Positions 1 through 41,269 of a stretch of DNA of 41,269 bases are shown one piece after another. The stretch comes from Candidatus Woesearchaeota archaeon (GTDB lineage Archaea > Nanobdellota > Nanobdellia > SCGC-AAA011-G17 > JAGVXY01). The stretch lies in NCBI GenBank assembly GCA_018303545.1, contig JAGVXY010000023.1, forward strand, positions 1 to 41,269, written 5' to 3'. The translations under genes were made by a program, and so were the position numbers. Within the stretch, counting starts at the first letter, position 1; each line of letters begins with the position of its first letter. The notes under the pieces are model-generated. The model was not told the DNA's origin. It was given only the letters and a program-made list of their open reading frames with translations, and searched no databases.

Positions 1-135
1 TGCTATGCCTTCGGTGAATTCTATAACTTGCTATATCGACAGCTAGTTCTGACAATCAACGGGGATGCCGGATGGAAAGAAATAGAGAATGATGAGATAA
101 GGAAAGGTGTGTTAGAAGAGATAAAAAAGAAGTAA
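1..135 (+). CDS. 3' end of a CDS entering from upstream of the window (product unknown)
   Basis: Frame 1 is open from base 1 to TAA at 133-135 (CYAFGEFYNLLYRQLVLTINGDAGWKEIENDEIRKGVLEEIKKK*). Too short to assign. Confidence 0.55.
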   Translation, partial: CYAFGEFYNLLYRQLVLTINGDAGWKEIENDEIRKGVLEEIKKK

Positions 136-6299: not shown

Positions 6300-7163
6300 C
6301 TACCGATTCTTATCAACATATTGTTTTATAAACTTAATGTTTCCAAGACATAATTCTTCCTTAAAACCAAGATCCAATAGTTTGTCATAAGGGGGTAAGC
6401 TTCTTAACAATTCCAATTTATTATGAATAATAAAACTTATTTCATTATTCTTGTTTGTGAAATAAAATTTGGTTGCTTGAATAAAATGAGGTAATGAGTT
6501 TAAATATTTGTATGCTGCATTCCCAATTATCAAGAAAGGTGTTTCGTAAGCCCCTTTCCAATATCCCCTCTTTGATTTTTCTTCAAAAGTTTCGATAATC
6601 TTTTCTCCCTTTTCGTTGTAAAGATTGATACTTGCCTTATTTAAAAATAGATTAACAAGCCTTAATAATTCAGATTTACTGCTAAAAGCGATATCTAGTT
6701 CCCATCCTCGACTTTCCGCAATTAATGCTCCGTCAGCCTCTTCAAATTCAGCATAATTCTCTAATGGTTTAGTATATTTGGTCAAATCGATAAATTCCTT
6801 CTCTCTTAAATCTTTTATACATAGTCCAGGAAATATTTCGCCTGACTCGTCACATATTTCGAAATCTAATTCAAAAACAAAAACGCTACCCTTCTCCCTA
6901 ATGCGATTAAGAATATATTTACTAGTATAACCTAATTTTATTAAATCATATAACATGTCTCTTCTATATTCGTTTGATTCGTGACAGTTCGAAAAAGTAA
7001 CAATGCTTGTTGAAATTGGCAAACTAACGTACCAATTGTATCCCGTGATAACATTTGATTTAGAATTGTTATGGTTCTGAATCCGGATTAAATCATCTAA
7101 ACACTCAAAAATCTCATTCCTCCTTCTTTCGGATATCCAATTCAAATCATTTTTTGATACCAT
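6300..7163 (-). CDS. Hypothetical protein (287 aa)
   Basis: Long ORF in AT-rich DNA. No recognised motif. Confidence 0.7.
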   Translation of the reverse strand: MVSKNDLNWISERRRNEIFECLDDLIRIQNHNNSKSNVITGYNWYVSLPISTSIVTFSNCHESNEYRRDMLYDLIKLGYTSKYILNRIREKGSVFVFELDFEICDESGEIFPGLCIKDLREKEFIDLTKYTKPLENYAEFEEADGALIAESRGWELDIAFSSKSELLRLVNLFLNKASINLYNEKGEKIIETFEEKSKRGYWKGAYETPFLIIGNAAYKYLNSLPHFIQATKFYFTNKNNEISFIIHNKLELLRSLPPYDKLLDLGFKEELCLGNIKFIKQYVDKNR

Positions 7164-7279
7164 CCCAATTAGACAGACTTTCTCATATATAAATATTTCT
7201 ATTTGTTGCCCCTAAATAGTTGCGACAATTTACTTTTCAAAAAACCTTATAAGTACAGAAAACATAAAAATTAGATGAA

Positions 7280-11571: not shown

Positions 11572-13518
11572 TTATTCTAATGGAGTTTCTGAGTAAGCGC
11601 CCCATTCTTTTGAAATTGGGGTGAGACCCGCTCCGCCTGTAACATAAGGACCGACTGCATGTGGCGTTGAATACATTGGACCAAATGTACTCATTGGAAC
11701 ATCCGTCCATGATCTTGGAGCCACGGCTCCGACACGGTAAGTCATCGATGCACCTAATCTAGACCATGCATGGGTCATAGCCTCATGATAACGACCTTGA
11801 TCTTGAGCACCACCTTCAACAATAAATGGCTCTTTCATTCCTGCTTTTTTCATAGTGTCGATGAAATGGCCTATTGGTGCATTACCCTCACCTAATGTAA
11901 GATGTTCATCATAATAACCAAAGTTATCAGATAAATGACCGTGACCGATTATACCTGATTTGGCTAAATCTTCTACTTTACCTTTTAACCATTTATCGAA
12001 TTCTTTATCCGACCCTTTAAAATACTTTCTCCAAGTATTGGCATGAGCAATATCAAACGTTGCCTTGATGTGTTCATTGGCAATTTTTTCAGCTTCTTTT
12101 TTATCGCCGGTAATTTTTTTCTCAATTAACTGTTCAGCCATAGCTTTTCTTGATTTTTGGACTAGTTCCTTTAATTCATCAGGATGAGCACCATAACCAT
12201 TCTCGGGAAAAATATTTTCTGGTGCAATATATAATGGTCTCTCAAGTTTTTTTTCTTTTTCTTTCTGGTAAGCATAAACTCCCAAACGGGCAATATTTGC
12301 AACTGATCTTTTCAACCCATAATCTTCAAGTGCTATGGCATTCTCTCTTTGAATAGCCATCTCCTTTGCCTGCTCTGCTTGGCCAACTGCACCTTCACGG
12401 TAATATTCTGTTTGTCTTGATGACTGAAGGGCCTTTTCTCTTGCAAATTCAGCAGGAGATTTTCCTTCAGTTGGTGAATAACCATGACGTCTGAAGTCTT
12501 CGTGAATTTGTGCCCCTTCTTTCCAAAGTTCTTTTACATCTTCCCGACTCGCATTATCTTTTTCAAACTTTTCTGCTCTCCTCGCTATTTCTTCCCATTT
12601 TTTTCTTGATTCTAGAGCCTCCTTATAAGCCTCTCCAAATTTTGCAGATTCAGACCAAAGATATTTTTCTCGACCCTCAACTTTCGAGCGATATATCATA
12701 AGCTCAGGAGTAAGCTGATTTTTCTTGTGGTCTGGATCTTCGTTCCATTCTTTAGCTAGTTCATTAAAATCATCGTATTTCTTAATCCTTACGTCTATTG
12801 CCCCCGTTTTTGGATTTGTAAGTGGAACGCGGTCGGCAAGCTTGAAAACTTTATTACCATCAAAATCAATATAATCATTCTTCTTTACCCTATTGCCCTG
12901 GGCATCAGTGTAGTCTTTCTCGCTTCTTTTAAATTCAGGAACAATAAATTCTTGGTCTTTCTTTATTCCTTGAACGAGTTCACCCGTTTTACTATTAACA
13001 AGATAAATCGGATGACTTTTCTCTTCATCTTTATATCTTTCAAACTCAGGATATTTTTTTGGAACAGCAACAGGAAATTCAGCAGTATGAATAACAACAG
13101 CACCACCTCCGGCAGTGTCAGCGGCAAAATCAACTGCTCTTCGAACTTCTATCATATTACGTTCTGCAGCTTCATCAGAAAAACCTCTTTCTCCCAAACC
13201 AGCAAAACCGGCAGCGTTAGCAGAAGCGTGAGTTGAAAGCTGAACCTTGTTGATTTTTGCCAATTCTTTTATAGCTTCTCTTTTCGCTCTACCGATGGTC
13301 TCAGGATTATAACCTGTAGGCTGGTAAACGGAACCTTTGCCAGAACCCATAAAACCTAATTCAACTGCCTGAGCGCCAACATTAATGTTAGTCTTGAGCT
13401 GCTCAAGAGGATCTCCTGCACCGACAGAAATGCCTAACTCTTTAGCACTTAGTGGTTCTTTAGTTTTAATAAAATAATTATCCATGCTGTTCCAATAATC
13501 ATTATCGAAGCTGACCAT
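11572..13518 (-). CDS. Xylose isomerase-like / endonuclease IV-type TIM-barrel protein with a ~245-aa insertion
   Basis: STH97, VIH144, APE434N, TFD489IAH492, GH528LSDN, YD537EH539LTLGEG, IVE568. Confidence 0.8.
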   Translation of the reverse strand: MVSFDNDYWNSMDNYFIKTKEPLSAKELGISVGAGDPLEQLKTNINVGAQAVELGFMGSGKGSVYQPTGYNPETIGRAKREAIKELAKINKVQLSTHASANAAGFAGLGERGFSDEAAERNMIEVRRAVDFAADTAGGGAVVIHTAEFPVAVPKKYPEFERYKDEEKSHPIYLVNSKTGELVQGIKKDQEFIVPEFKRSEKDYTDAQGNRVKKNDYIDFDGNKVFKLADRVPLTNPKTGAIDVRIKKYDDFNELAKEWNEDPDHKKNQLTPELMIYRSKVEGREKYLWSESAKFGEAYKEALESRKKWEEIARRAEKFEKDNASREDVKELWKEGAQIHEDFRRHGYSPTEGKSPAEFAREKALQSSRQTEYYREGAVGQAEQAKEMAIQRENAIALEDYGLKRSVANIARLGVYAYQKEKEKKLERPLYIAPENIFPENGYGAHPDELKELVQKSRKAMAEQLIEKKITGDKKEAEKIANEHIKATFDIAHANTWRKYFKGSDKEFDKWLKGKVEDLAKSGIIGHGHLSDNFGYYDEHLTLGEGNAPIGHFIDTMKKAGMKEPFIVEGGAQDQGRYHEAMTHAWSRLGASMTYRVGAVAPRSWTDVPMSTFGPMYSTPHAVGPYVTGGAGLTPISKEWGAYSETPLE

Positions 13519-13519
13519 T

Positions 13520-14884
13520 TTACATAGTCACCATCCTATTCGCTTTCTTAAAGATGTAACCTAATGCATATGCGGAACCACTTGCTGCTTTTCCAGCCTT
13601 GCTTTTCTCTGATTTTGCATCAATTGGCTTCAATTGATGTGCCTTATTCTCTTTGCCTAATTGCCTTAGTTCTTTTAATCCGAATGTGCTACCTAATGAG
13701 GTAAAGAATCCTGTAAAGAAACTTGCAGATTCCTTTTTATCTTCTTTTTCTTTTTTACCGCCAATCATATCTGCCTGCTTCAAATATTCTTTCAAATCAT
13801 CTTCAATAGCAGTAAAACCTTCCTGAAGAGATTTCAAAACTTCAAAGTCTTCCTCATCTTTCTTTTTGAAATATTCATCAATATCTTTTTGAGTAACAAC
13901 ATAAGGGGCAATTACCACATCTGTACGGCCCATATGCATTGGACCTTTCTGGTATTCTGACTGGAAAGCCATTTGCGGCAGAACAACATATTTCATAGTC
14001 ACACGAACAGCAGGATAATATGTGTGAAATGATTTTGAATTAAAAGCCAATAATTCTAATTCAATTTTTGCAGATTCAAAAGAACGGACAATATCCGGAT
14101 CATTTAAATCACCTTTTAGATTTAATGCCCTAATATTTGTAATATAAGGGCGAATCCAATTGATATACATCTTCATTGTGTAATAATGAGTCTTAAGATT
14201 GCTCAAAGAGAAACGCTTTCTCTGCCTCAATTCTTTTTTTGTTGTATCACGCCATACAGCAAATTGCTTTAATTTTGTGGCAACAAGGCTTTTGACTTTT
14301 TGATTTGTATCAATCGCTTTTACTTTTGAAGCGACATCTTCAGAACTTTTTACATCTGTATTAAAAAAATGATCTGCCAATGTAACATAACCTGGACCGC
14401 CGACTGCTGATAGACCTAAGACAGAACCGGGATTTTGAGTACCACCCTCAACTAAATTTGTCCAAACTGTTTTCAATGCCAATTGAGATTCGTGAATGCC
14501 TTTCTCATCTTCTTCATAAAGAGTTAATCTTTCGTCTAAAATCCTTAACTCGTGAATCATCTTGAACAAAGACTGATTCATCTGTGCTAATGCTCCGAGC
14601 CACTTCCCTACTTCTCCCTGCTGAATAGACCTCCTTTGTTCTATATTACCAAAAAAGGATGATGAAGCAGCTGCATCAAAGACATCTCTAAGCTTAAGAA
14701 CCTGCTCAAAGCCTAAACCAAAAGGGCCTGGCTGCTGCAAGAAACGGAGAATCCAATAATAATGCTTTTCGACCCCAGCTTGCATGCTTTCTATGACAAA
14801 CTTGAAAGTTTTGCCACAGGCTGCATTGTCGACTAAAGGATTCCCACCCATTTTTTCCCTATCCAAAGTGATAATTTTTGTCAT
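13520..14884 (-). CDS. Hypothetical protein (454 aa), first gene of a 3-gene operon
   Basis: Long ORF with SD GAGGT upstream. Stop lies 1 nt before the ATG of the TIM-barrel gene. Helical/coiled-coil character, with the segment LKTVWTNLVEGGTQNPGSV. Confidence 0.85.
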   Translation of the reverse strand: MTKIITLDREKMGGNPLVDNAACGKTFKFVIESMQAGVEKHYYWILRFLQQPGPFGLGFEQVLKLRDVFDAAASSSFFGNIEQRRSIQQGEVGKWLGALAQMNQSLFKMIHELRILDERLTLYEEDEKGIHESQLALKTVWTNLVEGGTQNPGSVLGLSAVGGPGYVTLADHFFNTDVKSSEDVASKVKAIDTNQKVKSLVATKLKQFAVWRDTTKKELRQRKRFSLSNLKTHYYTMKMYINWIRPYITNIRALNLKGDLNDPDIVRSFESAKIELELLAFNSKSFHTYYPAVRVTMKYVVLPQMAFQSEYQKGPMHMGRTDVVIAPYVVTQKDIDEYFKKKDEEDFEVLKSLQEGFTAIEDDLKEYLKQADMIGGKKEKEDKKESASFFTGFFTSLGSTFGLKELRQLGKENKAHQLKPIDAKSEKSKAGKAASGSAYALGYIFKKANRMVTM

Positions 14885-15024
14885 TTATAAGCTTTTACCT
14901 CTCTGCGACATTTATGTAATAGTTACGGGTATAGAAGATTTCTTAAGATAAATATATTCTGTAAAATATATGACAAAAAAATCATAGTTAATTTTATTAA
15001 GTTTGATTTGTGATAAAATATTAA

Positions 15025-15414
15025 ATGAAAAAATTGTGGTTAGTTGCTTTGATTGTTTTTATTTTTGATCAACTTAGTAAAATATTTTTCACGGGGAAAG
15101 AATTTTTTATTTTTAAGTATGCTGAGAATTATGGCGCTGCATTTTCTCTTTTTAATGGAGGTCGATGGTTCTTTATTTTTGTTGCTATTGCTTTAATATT
15201 CTTTATCTGGCATTATAGAAAGAAAATAAATAAAAACTTACAAATTCCCTTGGGACTACTTGTTGGAGGCGCATTAGGAAACACTTATGATAGATTATTT
15301 TTCGGCTTCGTAAGGGACTTTATTGATTTGGGATTTTGGCCTGTGTTTAACATCGCAGATATTGCAAACTGCATTGCTGTTGTTCTAATCATATATTATA
15401 CGTGGAAAGAATAA
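15025..15414 (+). CDS. lspA: Lipoprotein signal peptidase (signal peptidase II)
   Basis: FDQLSK, ENYGAAFS, GGALGNTYDR, VRDFID and PVFNIAD (both catalytic Asp present). Hydrophobic segments. Confidence 0.9.
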   Translation: MKKLWLVALIVFIFDQLSKIFFTGKEFFIFKYAENYGAAFSLFNGGRWFFIFVAIALIFFIWHYRKKINKNLQIPLGLLVGGALGNTYDRLFFGFVRDFIDLGFWPVFNIADIANCIAVVLIIYYTWKE

Positions 15415-15454
15415 ATTGTACTTCTAGAAATTAAACATTTATATTTTAGAAACA

Positions 15455-15475
15455 TTTAAATAGATGTATTATCTA
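15455..15475 (+). promoter_or_regulatory. TATA box plus small inverted repeat (possible antitoxin operator)
   Basis: TTTAAATA at 15455-15462, 23 nt before ATG 15486. TAGAT-N5-ATCTA at 15461-15475. Confidence 0.5.
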
Positions 15476-15485
15476 AATGTATCGT

Positions 15486-15740
15486 ATGGGGACGATAACA
15501 ATAAACGTCGAAGATAATGTAGAGGCTGATTTTAGAAAGATGGTAGAATCAGAGTACGGCACTGGAAAAGGAATTCTTGGAAAAGCCGTTGCGGAAGCAT
15601 TGAAAAAATGGATCGAAGAAAAAGAACAGAAAGAAATTAAGGAAAAACTCATTAAACTGATGGACAGCGGGTTCAAATCAGGCATTAAGATGTACAAAGA
15701 AAGGGGAGAACTATATGAAAGAAGATGCAGCCATAATTGA
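15486..15740 (+). CDS. Ribbon-helix-helix-type antitoxin (VapB-like)
   Basis: MGTITINVEDNVEADFRK...KAVAEALKKW (beta strand plus two helices). Overlaps the PIN gene start. TATA spacing favours ATG 15486. Confidence 0.7.
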   Translation: MGTITINVEDNVEADFRKMVESEYGTGKGILGKAVAEALKKWIEEKEQKEIKEKLIKLMDSGFKSGIKMYKERGELYERRCSHN

Positions 15741-16152
15741 TTCTAACATACTTGTATATGCTTATGATGAAACTGAAAAAAATAAACATTTGGCTGCAAA
15801 AGCACTGATTTATGATATTATCAAAAAAGATAAACATTTTGTATTATCTGTGCAGAATATTTCTGAATTTTTTTTCATAATCACGGAAAAATTAAAAATG
15901 GATAAAGAAGTTGCGGAATATCTCGTGAAAAATTATGCCAAGTTGGAATCTGGAAAAATATTAGGAATAAATCCAAACTCGGTAATTAGGGCAATGGATA
16001 TTTCGAGAGAATATAATATACACTATTGGGATGCATTGATAGCTGCAGTAATGGAAGAAAATGGCATAAAAAGGATATATACCGAAAATGTTAAAGACTT
16101 TTCTAAAGTCCCGTGGATTGAAGTGATAAACCCATTAATTCAAAATTCCTGA
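15715..16152 (+). CDS. vapC: PIN-domain toxin (VapC family)
   Basis: IIDSNILVYA, QNISEF, YWDALIAA, IYTENVKDF: four acidic PIN positions. Confidence 0.88.
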   Translation: MKEDAAIIDSNILVYAYDETEKNKHLAAKALIYDIIKKDKHFVLSVQNISEFFFIITEKLKMDKEVAEYLVKNYAKLESGKILGINPNSVIRAMDISREYNIHYWDALIAAVMEENGIKRIYTENVKDFSKVPWIEVINPLIQNS

Positions 16153-16406
16153 TAAATCTTATGCGGGCCTATCTCCAAGAAATAGATTTTGTCATCAATA
16201 ACTTCATAGATTATTCTAAAATTATGATTTATTCTTGCACTAAATAATTTGCGTTCTGCATGCAACCTTTCGTGCTGGTGCGGATGCTCTGGCTCGTTAA
16301 GGATTTCATTGATAACTTTATTTACATGCTCCTTTAATCCAGGATATTTCTTCAAATGCTTCAAGAAACGAGAGCTGAATTCCTGGCTATGAATATTGAA
16401 CCACAT
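16140..16406 (-). CDS. RelE/ParE-superfamily toxin-like protein, no adjacent antitoxin
   Basis: F.KHLKK...ERLH...LFSARINHNFRIIYEVIDDKIYFLEIGPH..Y pattern. An alternative TTG start is at 16415. Confidence 0.7.
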   Translation of the reverse strand: MWFNIHSQEFSSRFLKHLKKYPGLKEHVNKVINEILNEPEHPHQHERLHAERKLFSARINHNFRIIYEVIDDKIYFLEIGPHKIYQEF

Positions 16407-16490
16407 AGAGGGCAATAAAGAAAATGAAGTTAAAAAATGTTTCTAAAATACGTTAATTTTATAAATAAAAAGTAAGTTTAAGGTAGTTAT

Positions 16491-16565
16491 GAGCCTGTAG
16501 CCTAGACTGGATAGGGCACCAGCCTTCTAAGCTGGGGACCGAGGGTTCAAATCCCTCCAGGCTCA
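16491..16565 (+). tRNA. tRNA-Arg(TCT)
   Basis: Acceptor GAGCCTG/CAGGCTC, anticodon arm CCAGC-CTTCTAA-GCTGG, T arm GAGGG-TTCAAAT-CCCTC. No intron, no encoded CCA. TTTATAAA at 16458-16465. Confidence 0.95.
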
Positions 16566-16567
16566 TA

Positions 16568-17245
16568 TTATTTCAAAGGAATCTGTTCTATAATTAATAA
16601 GGCCTGCTGATCCTTTTCGTTAGGATAAGGATAAACCTGTTCATTCGTTATTTTAATACCAGTGAACTCTTTTGAAGTCCCTTCAGGAATGGTGTAAGAC
16701 CTTCGATAAATATCCTGCATATCTATATTAATTATAACGGTGGATGGTTTTCCTAAATTTCCTGCAATAATATCATAAACTGAGACAGTAACATTTTCGA
16801 ATCTGATAAAATCATCTACTTTCATCAAATATTCATTTGTTTTGAAGGTATATTCTGTAACGTTAATTGCAACAAAATCTCTTTCCTTATGAACATTGTC
16901 ATAAACTTGAGTTACAAAAAAGAAAAACTTATTATCAATTGGGTATCCTGTTCCTGTAGTGAATAGAGTAAACTTCTTATCCCCTAATAAAAATTTTGCT
17001 TGGCCGTCATTGGTATGCTCAAGCAAGGTTAATTTATTTTCTCCAAATTGCAAGGAATCTCCTATCCTAAATTTCATATAGGCTTCGGGCTTTACTGTAA
17101 ATATTGCAGAATCATTTAATGTCTGATTTTCTTCTGAAAGATCTACTCTTTCTGAAGTATTCAACGGGAAAATTTCTTCTTTTTCATAGCACCCTGCTGT
17201 AAACAAAATCCCTACCATAAGTAAAAATATCATTGTCCTTTTCAT
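16568..17245 (-). CDS. Hypothetical secreted lipoprotein-like protein
   Basis: MKRTMIFLLMVGILFTAG-C signal (likely start 17245; ORF track starts 17302). Beta-rich with two loosely repeated units (YMKFRIGDSLQFGE / YLMKVDDFIRFEN). Confidence 0.75.
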   Translation of the reverse strand: MKRTMIFLLMVGILFTAGCYEKEEIFPLNTSERVDLSEENQTLNDSAIFTVKPEAYMKFRIGDSLQFGENKLTLLEHTNDGQAKFLLGDKKFTLFTTGTGYPIDNKFFFFVTQVYDNVHKERDFVAINVTEYTFKTNEYLMKVDDFIRFENVTVSVYDIIAGNLGKPSTVIINIDMQDIYRRSYTIPEGTSKEFTGIKITNEQVYPYPNEKDQQALLIIEQIPLK

Positions 17246-17379
17246 TTTTGCTGTCTTAAAGACCTTGTTTTGTTTATAAAATTTTCTATGCTTCTGAACC
17301 ACATTTCAAACTTATTGGATTTTGCCAAAAAGGTTATGGAAAGGCTTAAATATTAGATTTAAGTTATTCTTGAATTAAT

Positions 17380-17452
17380 GCTGGTATGCCCAAGCGGTTA
17401 AGGGGATCGGCTGCAACCCGATTATTCCCAGGTTCGAATCCTGGTACCAGCT
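17380..17452 (+). tRNA. tRNA-Cys(GCA)
   Basis: Acceptor GCTGGTA/TACCAGC, anticodon arm ATCGG-CTGCAAC-CCGAT, T arm CCAGG-TTCGAAT-CCTGG, U73 discriminator. No CCA. Confidence 0.95.
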
Positions 17453-17523
17453 TTTCTTAAAACTAATGGGCAAATGCAAAAAAACACAAAATATTTATAA
17501 AATAACTACCCTCAATGTTACTC

Positions 17524-18786
17524 ATGTTAGGTAATTTAGGAGATTCACTTAAAAGTACCCTTAAAAAGATTGCGGGAAGCATTTTCATAGATGAAAAACT
17601 GATAGATGAGATTGTAAGAGAAATACAAAGGGCCCTGTTGCAGGCAGATGTAAATGTTAAATTGGTTTTTGAATTATCTAAAAATATTAAGAAAAGAGCG
17701 TTAGATGAAAAGGCTCCGAAAAATCTTGACCAGCGAGAATATATTATCAATGTTGTTTATGAAGAATTAGTAAAATTCTTAGGCGAAAATAGAAAAGAAA
17801 TTAAAATAGAAAAGAAAAAACCTTTTAAGATAATGCTTCTTGGATTGTTTGGTTCGGGAAAAACCACAACATCGGCAAAATTAGCAAAATACTATTCCAA
17901 AAGAGGATATAAGGTAGGGATTTTAGGATTAGATGTCTGGAGAGCAGCAGCATTAAAACAATTGAAACAATTGGGTGAAAAAATAAACATAAATGTTTAT
18001 GGAAATGAGAAGGAGAAAAATCCTATTAAAATCTACAAAGAATTTGAAAAAGAATACAAAGATTATGATTTACTAATAATAGATACTGCGGGAAGAGATG
18101 CCTTGAATGATGAATTAATCAAAGAGATAGATTCTATAAATAAAATGGTAAATCCAGATGAAGTTCTACTTGTAATTTCAGCAGATATAGGCCAAGCTGC
18201 ACAATCACAGGCACAAAAATTTCATGAAACTTGCAAGGTCACAGGATTCATAGGTATGGGAGAGAAAATAGATGATTTAGAAGAATTCAATCCTAAAGGT
18301 TTTGTCGGAAGAATGCTAGGCATGGGAGATTTGGAAGCTTTGCTAGAAAAAGCAAAAGAAGCAATAAATGAAGAAGATGCTAAGGATATGGGCAAGAAAA
18401 TGCTCAAAGGAGATTTCAATTTCTTAGACTTATATGATCAACTGCAGATGATGAATAAGATGGGGCCATTGGATAAAATATTTGATATGATCCCAGGATT
18501 AGGGGGGGTTAAACTGCCTAAAGAAGCATTACAGGTCCAAGGCGATAAATTAAAGGCATGGAAATATCTCTTCCAGTCCATGACTAAAGAAGAGCTTGAA
18601 GATCCTGAAATCTTGACAGGAGATAGAATCAATAGAATCGCAAAAGGCGCAGGAAGAAATGCTTCTGATATCAGGGAATTATTAAAGCAATATAGAATGA
18701 GCAAAAAAATGATGAAAACTATGGGCTCTGGAAATCCAGAAAAATTAATGAAAAAATTTAAAGGCAAAATGCCTATGAAGTTTTAA
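17524..18786 (+). CDS. srp54: Signal recognition particle protein SRP54 with an internal in-frame deletion
   Basis: ALLQADVN, G1 GLFGSGKTTT, DVWRAAA, G3 DTAGR, FIGMGEKIDDLEEFNP, Met-rich M domain with RINRIAKGAG. TKxD/GTAKGG is absent. TATA at 17494-17501 favours ATG 17524. Confidence 0.93.
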   Translation: MLGNLGDSLKSTLKKIAGSIFIDEKLIDEIVREIQRALLQADVNVKLVFELSKNIKKRALDEKAPKNLDQREYIINVVYEELVKFLGENRKEIKIEKKKPFKIMLLGLFGSGKTTTSAKLAKYYSKRGYKVGILGLDVWRAAALKQLKQLGEKININVYGNEKEKNPIKIYKEFEKEYKDYDLLIIDTAGRDALNDELIKEIDSINKMVNPDEVLLVISADIGQAAQSQAQKFHETCKVTGFIGMGEKIDDLEEFNPKGFVGRMLGMGDLEALLEKAKEAINEEDAKDMGKKMLKGDFNFLDLYDQLQMMNKMGPLDKIFDMIPGLGGVKLPKEALQVQGDKLKAWKYLFQSMTKEELEDPEILTGDRINRIAKGAGRNASDIRELLKQYRMSKKMMKTMGSGNPEKLMKKFKGKMPMKF

Positions 18787-36062: not shown

Positions 36063-37418
36063 TTATTTGTGCGCAGACTTATTTTTTTTCAACTTTTTAG
36101 ATTTGGATAATCGTGCTATCGCTTCAAGATGTTTTATAACTCCGTTTTTGATTATCATAATTTTACCTATTGATTTTACTCGTCCTGGTTTTATTATAAT
36201 CCTATTTTTCCCGACTTTCTTAGATGTCATTTTTTCCAATTTAATAATCCAACCGTGAATTTTATAATTTTCAAGAGAGACTTCTTTAACCTTGCCAATA
36301 TAATCTCCATTTTCAGAATAAACCCCTTTTCCGATTACATTTTTTAATACCGCTACATCTTTTTGCTTTCCTTTTTTCACAACCCGGTGCCTTCTCAAGA
36401 TTATCTTAATTAAGTGAGTTATTCCAATTAAAATGATCAATGTACTAAACCCTATAATAAAATATGCCTTGTTTGAAGAAATACTTTTTCCAACTGAAGT
36501 TACAACTGAAGACAATAAACGACTAATACTTGAGAGAGTATTTTTCAAATCATTGGAGAGGGTGGTTTCACTTGGAATTTCTTCATTTGCAGTCCCACTA
36601 ATAGTTTCATTCGCAAAAGCGGTTTTATTTTCAGTTTCAGATAAGGGAGTTATATCCGTAACATTCTCATAAATTGATTTAATATAAATATGGGCCTTAT
36701 TATTTTCAATTTTTTCTAATCGGACATATAAATCATAAAAATCATCACTATCTAAATCTAATTTTTTTCCTTCTCCTATCTTTAATGTAATCATAACGGA
36801 TTCAGGATAAATTATTATGGTGACTTTATCTAGCTGTAAATCTACTATCTCAAGAGAGTGCCCTTCTGATTTTATTTGGCCATAAGGCCTCTTTTGTATA
36901 GTATTAAACTTTACTTTTTCCCCATCTTTCAATATTTGTATTATCCCCGACAGGATGTTTTCATCTTTGATTTCATAAATGGTTTTACCTGTTATCCCCC
37001 CTCCTCCACCTCCTCCGGAGTCTCCACCACTAGTGGCATTTTCTTCTGAGACGGGTGCAGTTGTAACTTCAAAACTGTCAAAAGAGATATCTGGACCGCC
37101 AACATAGCTGACCATTGCTCTTAATTTGTATGTTCCTGCTAGGCTTGGCGCGGTTAGAGTCACAGTACTATTTACAGTTCCAGAAGCTGGAACAAAGGTT
37201 GTCTGCTGACTTGAAGTGTAATTAATAGTTTCGGCATTATTGGTTATCCAATAATCTATAATAAAATTCTGCCCAACGTCGGGATTCTGATTTATTATCT
37301 CAATTATTGAGTTGAAACTGCTTGATCCTACTACTGATGCTGGCGCATAAACCTTTGTATCTGCCGGCCCACCAAACCCTCCTGCAGGGTTATAGAATTC
37401 AAATCTATTCCACCGGAG
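36063..37418 (-). pseudogene. Frameshifted C-terminal part of the giant surface protein: Ig-like domain, Gly linker, TM helix, cytoplasmic PRC-barrel
   Basis: Frame is open from 37418 to the stop at 36063 with no good start. Reads PAGGFGGPADTKVYAP...GGDSGGGGGGG...AYFIIGFSTLIILIGITHLIKIIL...VIGKGVYSENGDYIGKVKEV...VKSIGKIMII. Confidence 0.75.
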
Positions 37419-40400
37419 TTAACAACTTCAACATAAAGCGTATAATTAACGGCTGTAAGATTTTCTGAATTGAAATATGCATTTTTAATTAATGTCAATT
37501 GCGGTCCTGTTTCCGTCGAAGGAATGGTTAAATTTATTGAATCGGAATCTGCAGAAATCAATGCGCCTGTAAATGAATCCATTCCATAAGCCTGCGCAAT
37601 TGAAGTCACATTATAATAAGTTGAAGAATTCCTTGCGAAATTGAGCATATAACTTTTTGTGGCAGTTTCTCCCGCATCTAAAAGTGCTATGCTGAAATTA
37701 TAATCTGCGTAATTTGAATCAGTTATATTCACGGTTGTTGCATTGCTTCCGCCCTTGTTTGTTAATTTTAAGGTTATATTATATGTGAAGGTTGTATTTG
37801 TGAAATTGTGGAAGCTTGCTATCTTATTCAAAATAAAAGAAGCAGATGTGCTTGTTGCAGGTATAATTACAGCGATTTCTGAAGAATTTGCCTCAATTAG
37901 ATTATCACTTATGGCATCGGTTGCATTAGCTGTGGCAATGCTTAAATTTTGAATTGTTAGCTCTGTTTTTCTTTCAAAGTCTAAGAGATAACTTATTATT
38001 CCTGTTTGGCTTGCTGTTAAGTTTCCAATATAATAAGAAGCTCCAGTCAGATTAGAATCAAAGATATATGAGTTAGTTGCATTTCTTCCGCCTTTATTGG
38101 TTAGACTTAGAGTTATGTTGTAAACTATATGCGTATTATTTGTCAAATGCAAGGAAGCTATTTTAGACAGCAACAAAGAAGCATTTGTTTTTAATGCAGG
38201 TATAAATATATTCAGTGGAGAGGAAGTAGCATTAATTAAATTACTGCTGATTATATCAATTCCATTTGCCAAAGCAATTGCCAATTCCTGATTTGAATCT
38301 AATAGGGATTTATTGTATGTTTTTTTGTAGCTTCTTGTTTCTGCCTGATTTGCCATCAGTGTTCCGATATCATAAGGAGAATCTAATGAATCACTATCGG
38401 TTATATTTGTAAAAGTGGCATTTCTTCCTCCACTGTTTGTTAGAATTAAACTAATATTGTAAGTGATATTAATGTCGGTTGAATCATATACTGAAGCAAT
38501 CTTATTTAGTAACAGCGAGGCATTGCTTTCTAAAGCCGGGATTAATACAGAAATTTGATTTGATTCGTAAAGTATAGAATCATAGGTTGCGTTTGCCTTT
38601 AAGAAAAGATATTCCTGATTTTCTGAAGTTTTGTTTATTATTCTTATTCCTGATGTGGAGTGGGATTTTGTTCTGTTCAGATTGATTGAATCATCTAAAG
38701 AAATATCTTCGTCTTTTATTTCTATTCCGTCTAAGTCTATTCCGCCGGAGTTAACAAACTCTAATGAAAGATTGTAAATAACAGAGGTTTCATTTTCAGA
38801 TAAGAATTGCGCATTTTTAATTAATGTCATGCTTGTATCTGCTGTTGTTGCCGGTGCGATAATTGTGATTTCTGAAGAAGTTGCAATAATTTCAGCTCCT
38901 CCAAGATTATCGGTTCCGTTTACCGAGGCAATGGCAAGAGTAATATTATTATTTGTTGAATTCCTCTGATAACTCTTTATATAAGAAGTTAAATTCGAAT
39001 TTCCTGCCAATATTGTCCCTATATTGTATGAACCCTCAACAGAATCCGAATCAGTTAAATTTACTGAACTTGCAGTGCTTCCCCCTTTATTTATTGTTCT
39101 CAATGTTATATTGTAGGTTATATTTGTTGGATTTAACGAGTGCAATGAAATTATCTTATCTAATGTGAGAGACGCAGGTGTTGCAGTTAATTCCCCGCCA
39201 ACAGTAAAATCATCTGAGCAGGATTTGTTGTATCCCTGATAACTAATTGAGGCGTTTATTGTATAATTTCCATCAGCTAAATCTGAAAATGAGTTTTGAA
39301 AACTTCCATCATTTTGAGAAGTTAGGATTCTTGAAATATTATAGATTTCTTCTTTGTATAAACTGAGATTAATAGTTTGAGAGCTTAATCCTGAAGTGCC
39401 ATCGGAGACATTTCCTTGAATTAAAACTAAGGCGTTCTGCCTGTAAGGCCCTCCTGCTTCGCAGTTTACTGTTAAATTAATTATGTTGAAATAATAATAT
39501 TCATTTGTTGAATTTGAACTCTCATTGCCTGCGATAACTGTCCAATTGTGCAGCCCTAAAGATAATCCCGTCCAATTATGAGAGACAGAATTTCCATTTG
39601 TTTGGTTGTAACTTATATTCAACAAAATCCCATCTCCATAAAACCAGATTGTTGAATTTATCAAATTTAAATCATAAATTGTTGCATTCAACAAAACAGA
39701 ATATTGATCGTTAAATTCATTATTGAAATAAGAATTATTGTTTGGGGATGTTAAGTTTACTTCTAAAATTGAACTGACCATTATAGAATTTGTTATAGAT
39801 ATTTGCTGTAGATGATTTATTGATTTGCAAGTTACATTCCAAGTGTAATTTCCCGCTAAAGCAAACGTTCTATTGTGATAATATACGCCTGCGGATTTAT
39901 TAAAAAACATTCTTCGGGTTATATTATCATCAAAATAAATAATACATTCAGGATAAAGTTCGAAAGCCCCTACATTGGAATTTTCAGCTGAAAATCCAAG
40001 GTATTTCTTTCCATTAACGCTATTTGTGAGATCTATACCTGTATTTGCACCATAATAATTATTATTTAATGTAGCTACATCTTCGCCCAACATTGTTTCA
40101 GGAAAAATGGCACTAAATTGGGTTAGGAGACCTCCGGTTTTATTTAAAATTATAATTGTTCCTGTGGTTCCACCAACAACAATAATTTCTTTTTCTCCAT
40201 CGTTATTAATATCGCTAACTTCTAGGCTGCCATAATATTCATTTATGAGGGGATAAACCCATTTCTGAGTTCCGGCTTTGTCTTCTAATCTAACATAAGC
40301 CCTCTCAAGATAAACATACTCATCTTCAGTTCCATCACTGGAATAATCAATGATTTCTACCTCATGGACTGCGCCAGTTGAAGTTGCATCTGTACGAATA

Positions 40401-41269
40401 AGATACCCTGTACTATTATAGAGATAAACATTACCATAGCCGCCTAATATTAAATCATCAGCAGTTCCATCTTGATAATAGTCAAAGAATTTGAGGGATT
40501 CTGCCGAGGTTGTTACAGCGGTGGAATTATAGATAAATGTCCCATTCCCATAGTATACATATGCCTTTTCTGCTCCAGTGTAGTCTACATATGCTACCCT
40601 ATTTGGGGCACCGGGAATTTCTGCTACCTTTATCTCTACAGGTTGAAAAAGACGAGTATCATTCAATCTAAAAATAATTTGAAACGAAGAAAGTGAAACA
40701 TTCCATGCAAATCCTACAATGCCATAGTATGTTCCCATGCCCCCTGTAACGTCTCCAACTCCTGCTACAATGTCGGGTATTCCATCATCATTTAAATCTC
40801 CCTTGGCAATAGTATAGCCTGCCTGGAACTTATTATATGGATAAAGCTGATTTCCTTCCTTGTCAAGTATTATGACATAACCTAAGCTGCCTACGGCGGC
40901 AATTTCATCATAAGAATCATTATTGAAATCCCCGCTTGTTAAATCATAGATATATTCGTAATTTTTTTTATCTCCATCGAAATCTGCGGCAATTAAATCA
41001 TAAAATCCATAACCTATACTTACATCTTTATACCATTCTGGTTTTGTAGTTATATCTGTAACAGGCGCATTAATTTCAAGATCGGTATAATTTGCAAAAA
41101 AGTAAGTATCTTGATTTGGAATCACCAATGCTTCTGATAGCCAGCTAGATTTATCCTCGCTATCTTCTTCTTGGTCAAAAACTTCCATACTAGATTGTTT
41201 TGTGAATACGGTAATATTTTTTGTCGATGACTTTGTTTCATATCCTCCTTTTTCACATTTAACTGTCCA
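37331..41269 (-). CDS. Giant secreted surface/adhesin-like protein (5' end beyond the window): FG-GAP-like repeats, Ig-like domains, DUF11-like repeats
   Basis: Frame is open from the window edge (WTVKCEKGGYET...). Repeated DFDGD/DFNNDSYDE/DLNDDGIPD/DINNDGEKE motifs and very many N-x-S/T sequons. Ends out of context at ITL-QEGLVGRQIQRFMRQHQ*. Confidence 0.85.
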   Translation of the reverse strand, partial: WTVKCEKGGYETKSSTKNITVFTKQSSMEVFDQEEDSEDKSSWLSEALVIPNQDTYFFANYTDLEINAPVTDITTKPEWYKDVSIGYGFYDLIAADFDGDKKNYEYIYDLTSGDFNNDSYDEIAAVGSLGYVIILDKEGNQLYPYNKFQAGYTIAKGDLNDDGIPDIVAGVGDVTGGMGTYYGIVGFAWNVSLSSFQIIFRLNDTRLFQPVEIKVAEIPGAPNRVAYVDYTGAEKAYVYYGNGTFIYNSTAVTTSAESLKFFDYYQDGTADDLILGGYGNVYLYNSTGYLIRTDATSTGAVHEVEIIDYSSDGTEDEYVYLERAYVRLEDKAGTQKWVYPLINEYYGSLEVSDINNDGEKEIIVVGGTTGTIIILNKTGGLLTQFSAIFPETMLGEDVATLNNNYYGANTGIDLTNSVNGKKYLGFSAENSNVGAFELYPECIIYFDDNITRRMFFNKSAGVYYHNRTFALAGNYTWNVTCKSINHLQQISITNSIMVSSILEVNLTSPNNNSYFNNEFNDQYSVLLNATIYDLNLINSTIWFYGDGILLNISYNQTNGNSVSHNWTGLSLGLHNWTVIAGNESSNSTNEYYYFNIINLTVNCEAGGPYRQNALVLIQGNVSDGTSGLSSQTINLSLYKEEIYNISRILTSQNDGSFQNSFSDLADGNYTINASISYQGYNKSCSDDFTVGGELTATPASLTLDKIISLHSLNPTNITYNITLRTINKGGSTASSVNLTDSDSVEGSYNIGTILAGNSNLTSYIKSYQRNSTNNNITLAIASVNGTDNLGGAEIIATSSEITIIAPATTADTSMTLIKNAQFLSENETSVIYNLSLEFVNSGGIDLDGIEIKDEDISLDDSINLNRTKSHSTSGIRIINKTSENQEYLFLKANATYDSILYESNQISVLIPALESNASLLLNKIASVYDSTDINITYNISLILTNSGGRNATFTNITDSDSLDSPYDIGTLMANQAETRSYKKTYNKSLLDSNQELAIALANGIDIISSNLINATSSPLNIFIPALKTNASLLLSKIASLHLTNNTHIVYNITLSLTNKGGRNATNSYIFDSNLTGASYYIGNLTASQTGIISYLLDFERKTELTIQNLSIATANATDAISDNLIEANSSEIAVIIPATSTSASFILNKIASFHNFTNTTFTYNITLKLTNKGGSNATTVNITDSNYADYNFSIALLDAGETATKSYMLNFARNSSTYYNVTSIAQAYGMDSFTGALISADSDSINLTIPSTETGPQLTLIKNAYFNSENLTAVNYTLYVEVVNSGGIDLNSITLQEGLVGRQIQRFMRQHQ
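37385..39190 (-). repeat. Six ~105-113-aa DUF11-like modules in order A-B-A-A-A-B(truncated)
   Basis: A-type: L.L.KIAS...ITYNI.L.L.N.GG..A....TDS ... I.IP(A/S). B-type: TLIKNA.F.SEN.T.V.Y.L..E.VNSGGIDL. Confidence 0.85.
40150..41060 (-). repeat. FG-GAP/VCBS-like Ca-binding repeats (about six; probable beta-propeller)
   Basis: AADFDGD, SGDFNNDSYDEI, KGDLNDDGIPDI, FDYYQDGTADDL, IDYSSDGTEDEY, SDINNDGEKEI. Confidence 0.75.

Follow-up and report, generated by a model that had tools for sequence, protein, structure and literature searches.

The SRP54 gene recorded in the analysed stretch of DNA (41,269 bp in length and referred to as the window in the following) lacks an in-frame segment of 81 bp, and from the comparison with other assemblies of the same population we infer a local error of assembly or curation as the most likely source of this gap. 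Judged by the available sequences, the deletion is private to one contig, and the SRP54 of this archaeon is an ordinary protein of 450 aa with all GTPase motifs that would work together with an intact FtsY and an SRP RNA. The window represents the entire contig C36 of the genome G000 (897,592 bp in 36 contigs, 96% complete), has a low G+C content of 0.31-0.38, and yields protein matches from Woesearchaeota, Nanoarchaeota and Pacearchaeota archaea. The host is a DPANN archaeon of the Woesearchaeota/Nanoarchaeota type with a genome of ~0.9 Mb, known from aquifer (groundwater) metagenomes.

The recorded gene occupies positions 17515-18786 of the plus strand and encodes 423 aa, for which the translated open reading frame, PDB matches and Pfam indicate N, G and M domains. 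Its top matches among PDB chains (phmmer) are archaeal SRP54 proteins, including that of P. furiosus (3dm5; E 4.5e-113). The match to 3dm5 falls into two pieces, in which query residues 4-245 correspond to chain residues 2-244 and query residues 243-415 to chain residues 269-441, and therefore approximately 24-27 residues are absent from the window SRP54. In Pfam, the SRP54 GTPase domain is covered at profile positions 2-146 of 196 only; the N-terminal four-helix bundle SRP54_N (PF02881; residues 8-85, E 2.8e-17) and the methionine-rich M domain SRP_SPB (PF02978; residues 301-400, E 1.5e-29) are present, the latter, which binds the signal peptide and SRP RNA, being intact at 18415-18714 of the plus strand. 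The same N-G-M architecture is found in the archaeal SRP54 structures of P. furiosus (3DM5) and M. jannaschii (3NDB/2V3C), with which the G1, G2 (insertion box) and G3 motifs, motif V and the M domain of the window protein align.

The gap lies between 18246 and 18247 (junction at 18245-18248, plus strand), where the translation of 17515-18786 reads ...FHETCKVTG and continues directly with FIGMGEK..., as placed by blastn and MAFFT against the loci L032-L036 and L074-L081. A search for homologous proteins returned P0002, a homologue of 450 aa that is listed with 94% identity over 100% of the query. In BLASTP, 423 of 423 residues are identical between the two proteins and a single gap of 27 residues follows G244, so that the record has lost the codons which specify V245-R271 in the intact allele. 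The absent residues read VIATKMD-STAKAGG-ALSACAATEAPIR in P0002. An in-frame loss at this very junction had already been noted in the initial annotation, which put it at about 25-30 residues or ~80 bp and described the remainder of the gene (G1, G3 and M domain) as intact and in frame; the protein and DNA alignments bear out the former with exact values of 27 residues and 81 bp, and the latter agrees with alignment A2, the Pfam matches and the complete identity to P0002.

The deletion takes out whole codons and preserves the reading frame. At the DNA level, the junction in the window reads CAAGGTCACAGGA joined to TTCATAGGTATG (in another rendering, AAGGTCACAGGA joined to TTCATAGGTATGG). The boundary of the 81 bp is ambiguous by 2 nt, and the dinucleotide GA is the sole microhomology. 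A deletion between two copies of TTC-ATA (FI...FI), which had been offered as an explanation for the junction, is refuted by the intact allele: to the left of the deletion it carries GGA GTT ATT (G-V-I) instead of TTC-ATA, and nothing beyond the GA is shared. Neither a repeat search nor the alignment at the boundaries revealed a direct repeat bracketing the 81 bp. We also rejected a hairpin-mediated deletion, as the nearby inverted repeats do not flank the junction, and a location of the missing segment elsewhere in the genome, be it in a split gene or on another contig, as the 81 bp give chance matches of 14 nt only.

Regarding the GTPase motifs, G1 or the P-loop (G-S-G-K-T within GLFGSGKT, 17851-17865) and G3 (D-T-A-G-R, 18082-18096; D190-R194), both on the plus strand, form invariant columns in A2 and align with 3dm5. 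Motif IV or G4 (TKxD), which contributes the guanine-specificity aspartate and reads TKMD in P0002, is absent from the record, and so are the DARGG-type motif (GTAKGG; STAKAGG in P0002) and helix alpha6. In P. furiosus SRP54, Lys248 and Asp250 belong to motif IV, with Asp250 as the determinant of guanine specificity, the closing loop (motif V) contains Glu276, and the DARGG motif is a separate element (Egea et al. 2008, PMC2568955). FIGMGEK of the window pairs with FIGtGEK at residues 271-277 of 3dm5, and therefore the true G5 closing loop (GxGEK; G-M-G-E-K at 18253-18267, plus strand, aligned to GtGEK at residues 273-277) is kept. The view that both G4 and G5 are lost thus holds for G4 but not for G5, since the GTAKGG taken for G5, and for the loop closed upon activation by FtsY, is the DARGG-type motif.

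Residues ~245-268/270 of 3DM5 have no counterpart in the recorded sequence. Along with beta6 and its motif IV (TKMD in the intact allele; Lys248 and Asp250 in 3DM5), the gap takes away the DARGG-type loop (STAKAGG), helix alpha6 and the beginning of beta7, and because of this loss the protein as recorded would be unable to bind GTP or to fold a normal G domain. Motif IV, which is expected of a functional SRP GTPase, is missing from the recorded sequence and present in the intact allele of the population.

The intact allele comes from the same population as the window. P0002 is encoded in a first set of four assemblies (JGI 3300003358, ENA ERZ28563784, Logan SRR4388699 and Logan SRR2090173) that share 99.88-100% DNA identity with the window over up to 21.3 kb, and the 81 bp represent the only indel. 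Via neighbouring genes, five further assemblies covering the site were found (JGI 3300025073, JGI 3300025117, ENA ERZ27254749, ENA ERZ27254847 and Logan SRR3989314). The 81 bp are present in all nine other assemblies that cover the site, at 99.2-100% DNA identity to the window, and the junction occurs in none of them, with the limitation that some of the nine may be re-assemblies of overlapping read sets and are thus not fully independent. Among the indexed gene positions, no other gene encodes the exact product of 423 aa, and in a collection of 15 billion proteins this sequence derives from the window's own NCBI contig only. Pattern scans of metagenome and genome contigs for the junction gave no match, and neither did the intact junction that served as positive control.

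The same picture emerges from more distant genomes. SRP54 is found in 39 of 40 related genomes at the order level, and all 39 keep the segment. Nearly all of them give two SRP54 matches (query residues 2-247 and ~238-423) that lie ~70 bp apart within one open frame of ~447-476 aa, and therefore they have the segment; the few exceptions to this pattern are fragments at contig ends, a genome in which only one match was obtained, a frame interrupted by a TAA stop, and G001, a genome of the same family in which an intein splits the frame. TK[LM]DGTA[KR]xGG and the following helix are conserved in 11 of the 12 sequences of alignment A2, in which the window is the lone exception, and G001 retains VVVTKMDGTAKAGGALSA. 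Alignment with close relatives, the check that had been suggested for this locus, thus finds the segment kept throughout, and a lineage-wide trait can be rejected, as every relative searched has the segment. The intact allele itself differs slightly from most relatives within the DARGG-type motif, as it reads D-S-T-A-K-A-G-G (P0002 residues 252-258; A2 columns 250-260) whereas D-G-T-A-K-G-G-G is found in nearly all of them; G001 likewise has A-K-A-G-G.

These data bear directly on the idea, put forward in the initial annotation, that the window encodes a functional GTP-blind SRP54 or an intermediate of SRP loss in a reduced symbiont. In this reading, the truncated G domain would be tolerated and the M domain alone would be at work, binding RNA and signal peptides. 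The idea gains something from the fact that the deletion is in frame and leaves the N and M domains untouched and from the known ability of the isolated M domain to bind signal sequences and SRP RNA (PMC2119734). The SRP54M constructs of that study (Zopf et al. 1993) resemble the recorded protein in lacking a working GTPase while keeping the M domain; however, they are laboratory constructs without the whole G domain, whereas 27 residues of the G-domain core are missing here, in a protein known from the record alone. Moreover, the G domain is required for translocation according to the title of the same publication, and the loss extends beyond surface motifs to a beta-strand of the core and a helix. 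The flanks are 100% identical in protein sequence to the intact allele, which argues against adaptive divergence, and the form is conserved in no relative and in no other assembly. Finally, FtsY, whose only known job is the pairing with the SRP54 GTPase, is intact. With an intact gene in nine assemblies and in the relatives, and with FtsY and SRP RNA in place, we consider such a function scarcely credible.

Concerning the SRP partners in G000, the search yielded intact FtsY and SRP RNA but neither SRP19 nor a second copy of SRP54. FtsY (399 aa) is encoded on C13 with intact G1, G3, G4 (SKAD) and DDKGG motifs, and the SRP RNA (Archaea_SRP, RF01857) scores 111.4 bits, above the Rfam cut-off, at G000:C9:102247-102525. 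SRP19 (PF01922) was not found in G000 or in any of the 21 genomes of the order (G000-G020), in spite of the presence of SRP RNA and SRP54, with a model that also missed Sulfolobus in the control set. Its absence is either typical of the lineage, in which SRP19 would have been lost, or reflects a protein too diverged for the Pfam model, and is in both cases unlinked to the deletion.

The SRP54 gene of this population has a further peculiarity. In ENA ERZ27254749, one contig (L067) is 99.9% identical to the window over 12140-17862, after which GLFGSGK runs into CVHKDSEIVLNNGE..., the start of an intein; a second contig of the same assembly (L076) carries the intein end ...IIVHN, followed by TTTSAKLAKYY and by sequence that is identical to the window downstream, the 81 bp included. 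Intein_splicing and LAGLIDADG_3 domains were confirmed by Pfam, and the boundaries read GSGK/C...HN/TTT (loci L067:3-614, L076:2-1117 and L064:828-2540). Based on these sequences, the population is polymorphic for a LAGLIDADG intein of ~574 aa in the P-loop of SRP54, where it sits between K116 and T117 (17862/17863 of the window). The window represents the intein-less allele, and no intein was found in G000. The same P-loop site is filled by an intein in G001, and the Pfam domain set of the intein recurs in SRP54 proteins of ~1030 aa that form at least 152 clusters in Woese-, Pace- and Nanoarchaeota; many of these clusters bear no annotation beyond 'LAGLIDADG family homing endonuclease'. The literature searched yielded no description of an intein in SRP54; PMC10710043 mentions one in a fungal SRP receptor.

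With such an element in the gene, the 81-bp gap could be imagined as the scar of an imprecise loss of a mobile element, e.g. the intein, or of homing-endonuclease damage, and the presence of LAGLIDADG inteins in SRP54 of both the population and many relatives speaks for this. However, the intein site at the P-loop (17862/17863) lies 385 bp upstream of the junction, and the intein-bearing allele in L076 has the 81 bp intact. In addition, the 120 intein-bearing SRP54 proteins listed mostly align over 63-79% of the query, as expected for the P-loop site, where the insertion is read from coverage and not from direct alignment of the site and a few of the 120 deviate (52%, 87% and 94-95%). This pattern gives no indication of an intein at the G4 site, although the deviating few could still include one. 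We therefore regard a scar as extremely improbable.

What the intein does entail is that SRP54 is a trouble spot for assembly in this population, as intein-plus and intein-minus alleles coexist and contigs break there. Contigs of five assemblies stop inside the gene, at 17860, 17862, 17865, 17966 and 18087 of the window, two of them being L070 (17865) and L071 (17860). Two further observations concern sequence variation within SRP54. A cluster of SNPs at 17844, 17845 and 17847 (A/T, T/C and G/T), 15-18 bp upstream of the intein site, is common to the intein-less loci L033 and L036 and could mark a co-conversion tract or, alternatively, an altered homing site. Furthermore, L036 (JGI 3300025073) carries a GAA-to-TAA change at L036:734, corresponding to 18370 of the window, that places a stop codon between the G and M domains and leaves an N-terminal fragment of 244 aa, the 5' end of which is lost to the contig end, and an M-domain ORF of 132 aa; either an error or a further damaged allele could account for it.

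The gap in SRP54 is not the only one on the contig. A second private deletion at 37379-37380, identified by blastn like the third, comprises 190 bp relative to L040 and L041, shows 0 nt of microhomology and introduces a frameshift that splits a large adhesin gene. The third, at 40962-40964, comprises 84 bp relative to L040, shows 3 nt of microhomology (TTT) and is in frame within the adhesin gene. The references are scaffold_566 of ENA ERZ28563683 (L040), which is 99.97% identical to the window, and Logan SRR2090167 (L041). One ORF of >2346 aa encodes the whole adhesin in L040, and the window ORFs 36063-37163 and 37331-41269 are one gene elsewhere. In total, C36 carries three deletions that are private to it, span 81-190 bp and lack flanking homology, and seven private SNPs in 41 kb, one of the latter at 18066 and thus 180 bp from the SRP54 junction, and no private insertions or small indels were found over this length.

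Three large non-homologous deletions per seven substitutions are an implausible natural spectrum in light of prokaryotic indel-to-substitution ratios. One of the deletions falls in the catalytic core of a gene that is retained universally, and we consider a natural origin of such a spectrum very unlikely. Because the junction is absent from nine assemblies and from the relatives, is non-homologous and has two companion deletions, a local assembly error is the most likely explanation. In this case, a chimeric read, or a join that no read supports, would have produced the junction in a gene that poses difficulties for assembly in this population. The alternative of an assembly collapse, raised in the initial annotation, is therefore the better supported one as far as an artefact is concerned, but not as a repeat collapse, as there is no repeat and the gap looks like one of three non-homologous deletions.

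Consensus stretches without read support are frequent in metagenome-assembled genomes of this kind, with 13 errors in a genome of 1.13 Mb as an example (Chen, Anantharaman, Shaiber, Eren and Banfield 2020, PMC7111523). The local assembly errors described there resemble the present case in that a short stretch of consensus departs from other assemblies, in that several sites are affected per small genome and in that a de Bruijn assembly with 99-bp overlaps at contig ends is involved. They are, however, defined by the lack of perfect read support, whereas the likeness drawn here comes from assembly comparison. A junction that is private to one assembly while the others agree, as is typical of assembly errors, is what we observe. 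The de Bruijn-graph signature is seen in a 99-bp overlap between C36 (window 1-99) and C35 (G000:C35:1-99); four other assemblies (L058, L059, L062 and L063) have the two as one continuous sequence, and the contigs can be joined. Stripping of Ns from scaffold gaps was also considered and rejected, as two N runs remain in the genome and gaps have thus not been systematically removed. Another spot on the contig that is variable or hard to assemble is 6391-7225 (835 bp; with an ORF of 287 aa at 6300-7163), in place of which GCA_036722875.1 (L061) has ~100 bases; contigs of two other assemblies begin at 6347 and 6390.

Several observations run counter to an artefact. The private SNPs, one of them near the junction, imply that the window is not merely a reassembly of the same reads and could derive from a distinct strain. 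The deletion pattern is, moreover, missing in ~60 kb of the contigs C3, C9 and C25, which show no non-homologous deletions against other assemblies and differ from them only by an 817-bp insertion and by tandem-repeat copy number in a DUF285 surface protein, so that a genome-wide artefact pattern was rejected. Lastly, an in-frame deletion on codon boundaries resembles a tolerated real allele, although one deletion in three would be of this kind by chance. As for the insertion (G000:C3:58961-59777), it has a flanking repeat of 21 bp, holds an ORF of 199 aa and a DUF8150 ORF, and adjoins an IS605 OrfB/TnpB gene; G000 and two assemblies carry this strain-level indel, which two others lack.

It is against this background that a real but non-functional strain allele has to be weighed, in which 81 bp of SRP54 as well as 190 bp and 84 bp of the adhesin gene would have been lost non-homologously and which the assembler would have followed. 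The lesion would then be recent, probably deleterious and drifting in a small episymbiont population. The seven private SNPs would fit a distinct haplotype, de Bruijn contigs normally require read support for each k-mer, the stop codon in SRP54 of L036 hints that damaged alleles may circulate, and strain-level indels such as the one of 817 bp in C3 exist elsewhere in the genome. However, known mutation spectra differ widely from a set of seven SNPs and three deletions of 80-190 bp that lack homology, the genome offers no further SRP54 copy to make up for the loss, the junction is seen in no other assembly, and every relative searched has an SRP54 with all motifs. On balance we consider such an allele rather unlikely and prefer the local assembly or curation error.

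Should the junction nevertheless turn out to be supported by reads, intact, intein-bearing and nonsense alleles of SRP54 and one without G4, owing to the deletion of 27 residues, would coexist in one DPANN population, a situation that we regard as decidedly improbable. If true, such a mix of alleles would mean relaxed selection on the SRP GTPase in an episymbiont, or cells with a dead SRP54 that persist for a while. If the deletion were both real and fixed, a GTP-blind SRP54 would challenge the indispensability of the SRP54-FtsY GTPase cycle. A more practical consequence calls for caution, as a public record, which probably is the species-representative genome, holds a shortened SRP54 and an adhesin that is falsely divided, and both could spread into protein databases and into analyses of pseudogenes and genome reduction. 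Overall, the species is best regarded as having a normal SRP54, and the gap is best filed as a defect of this particular record and not as a trait of the lineage.
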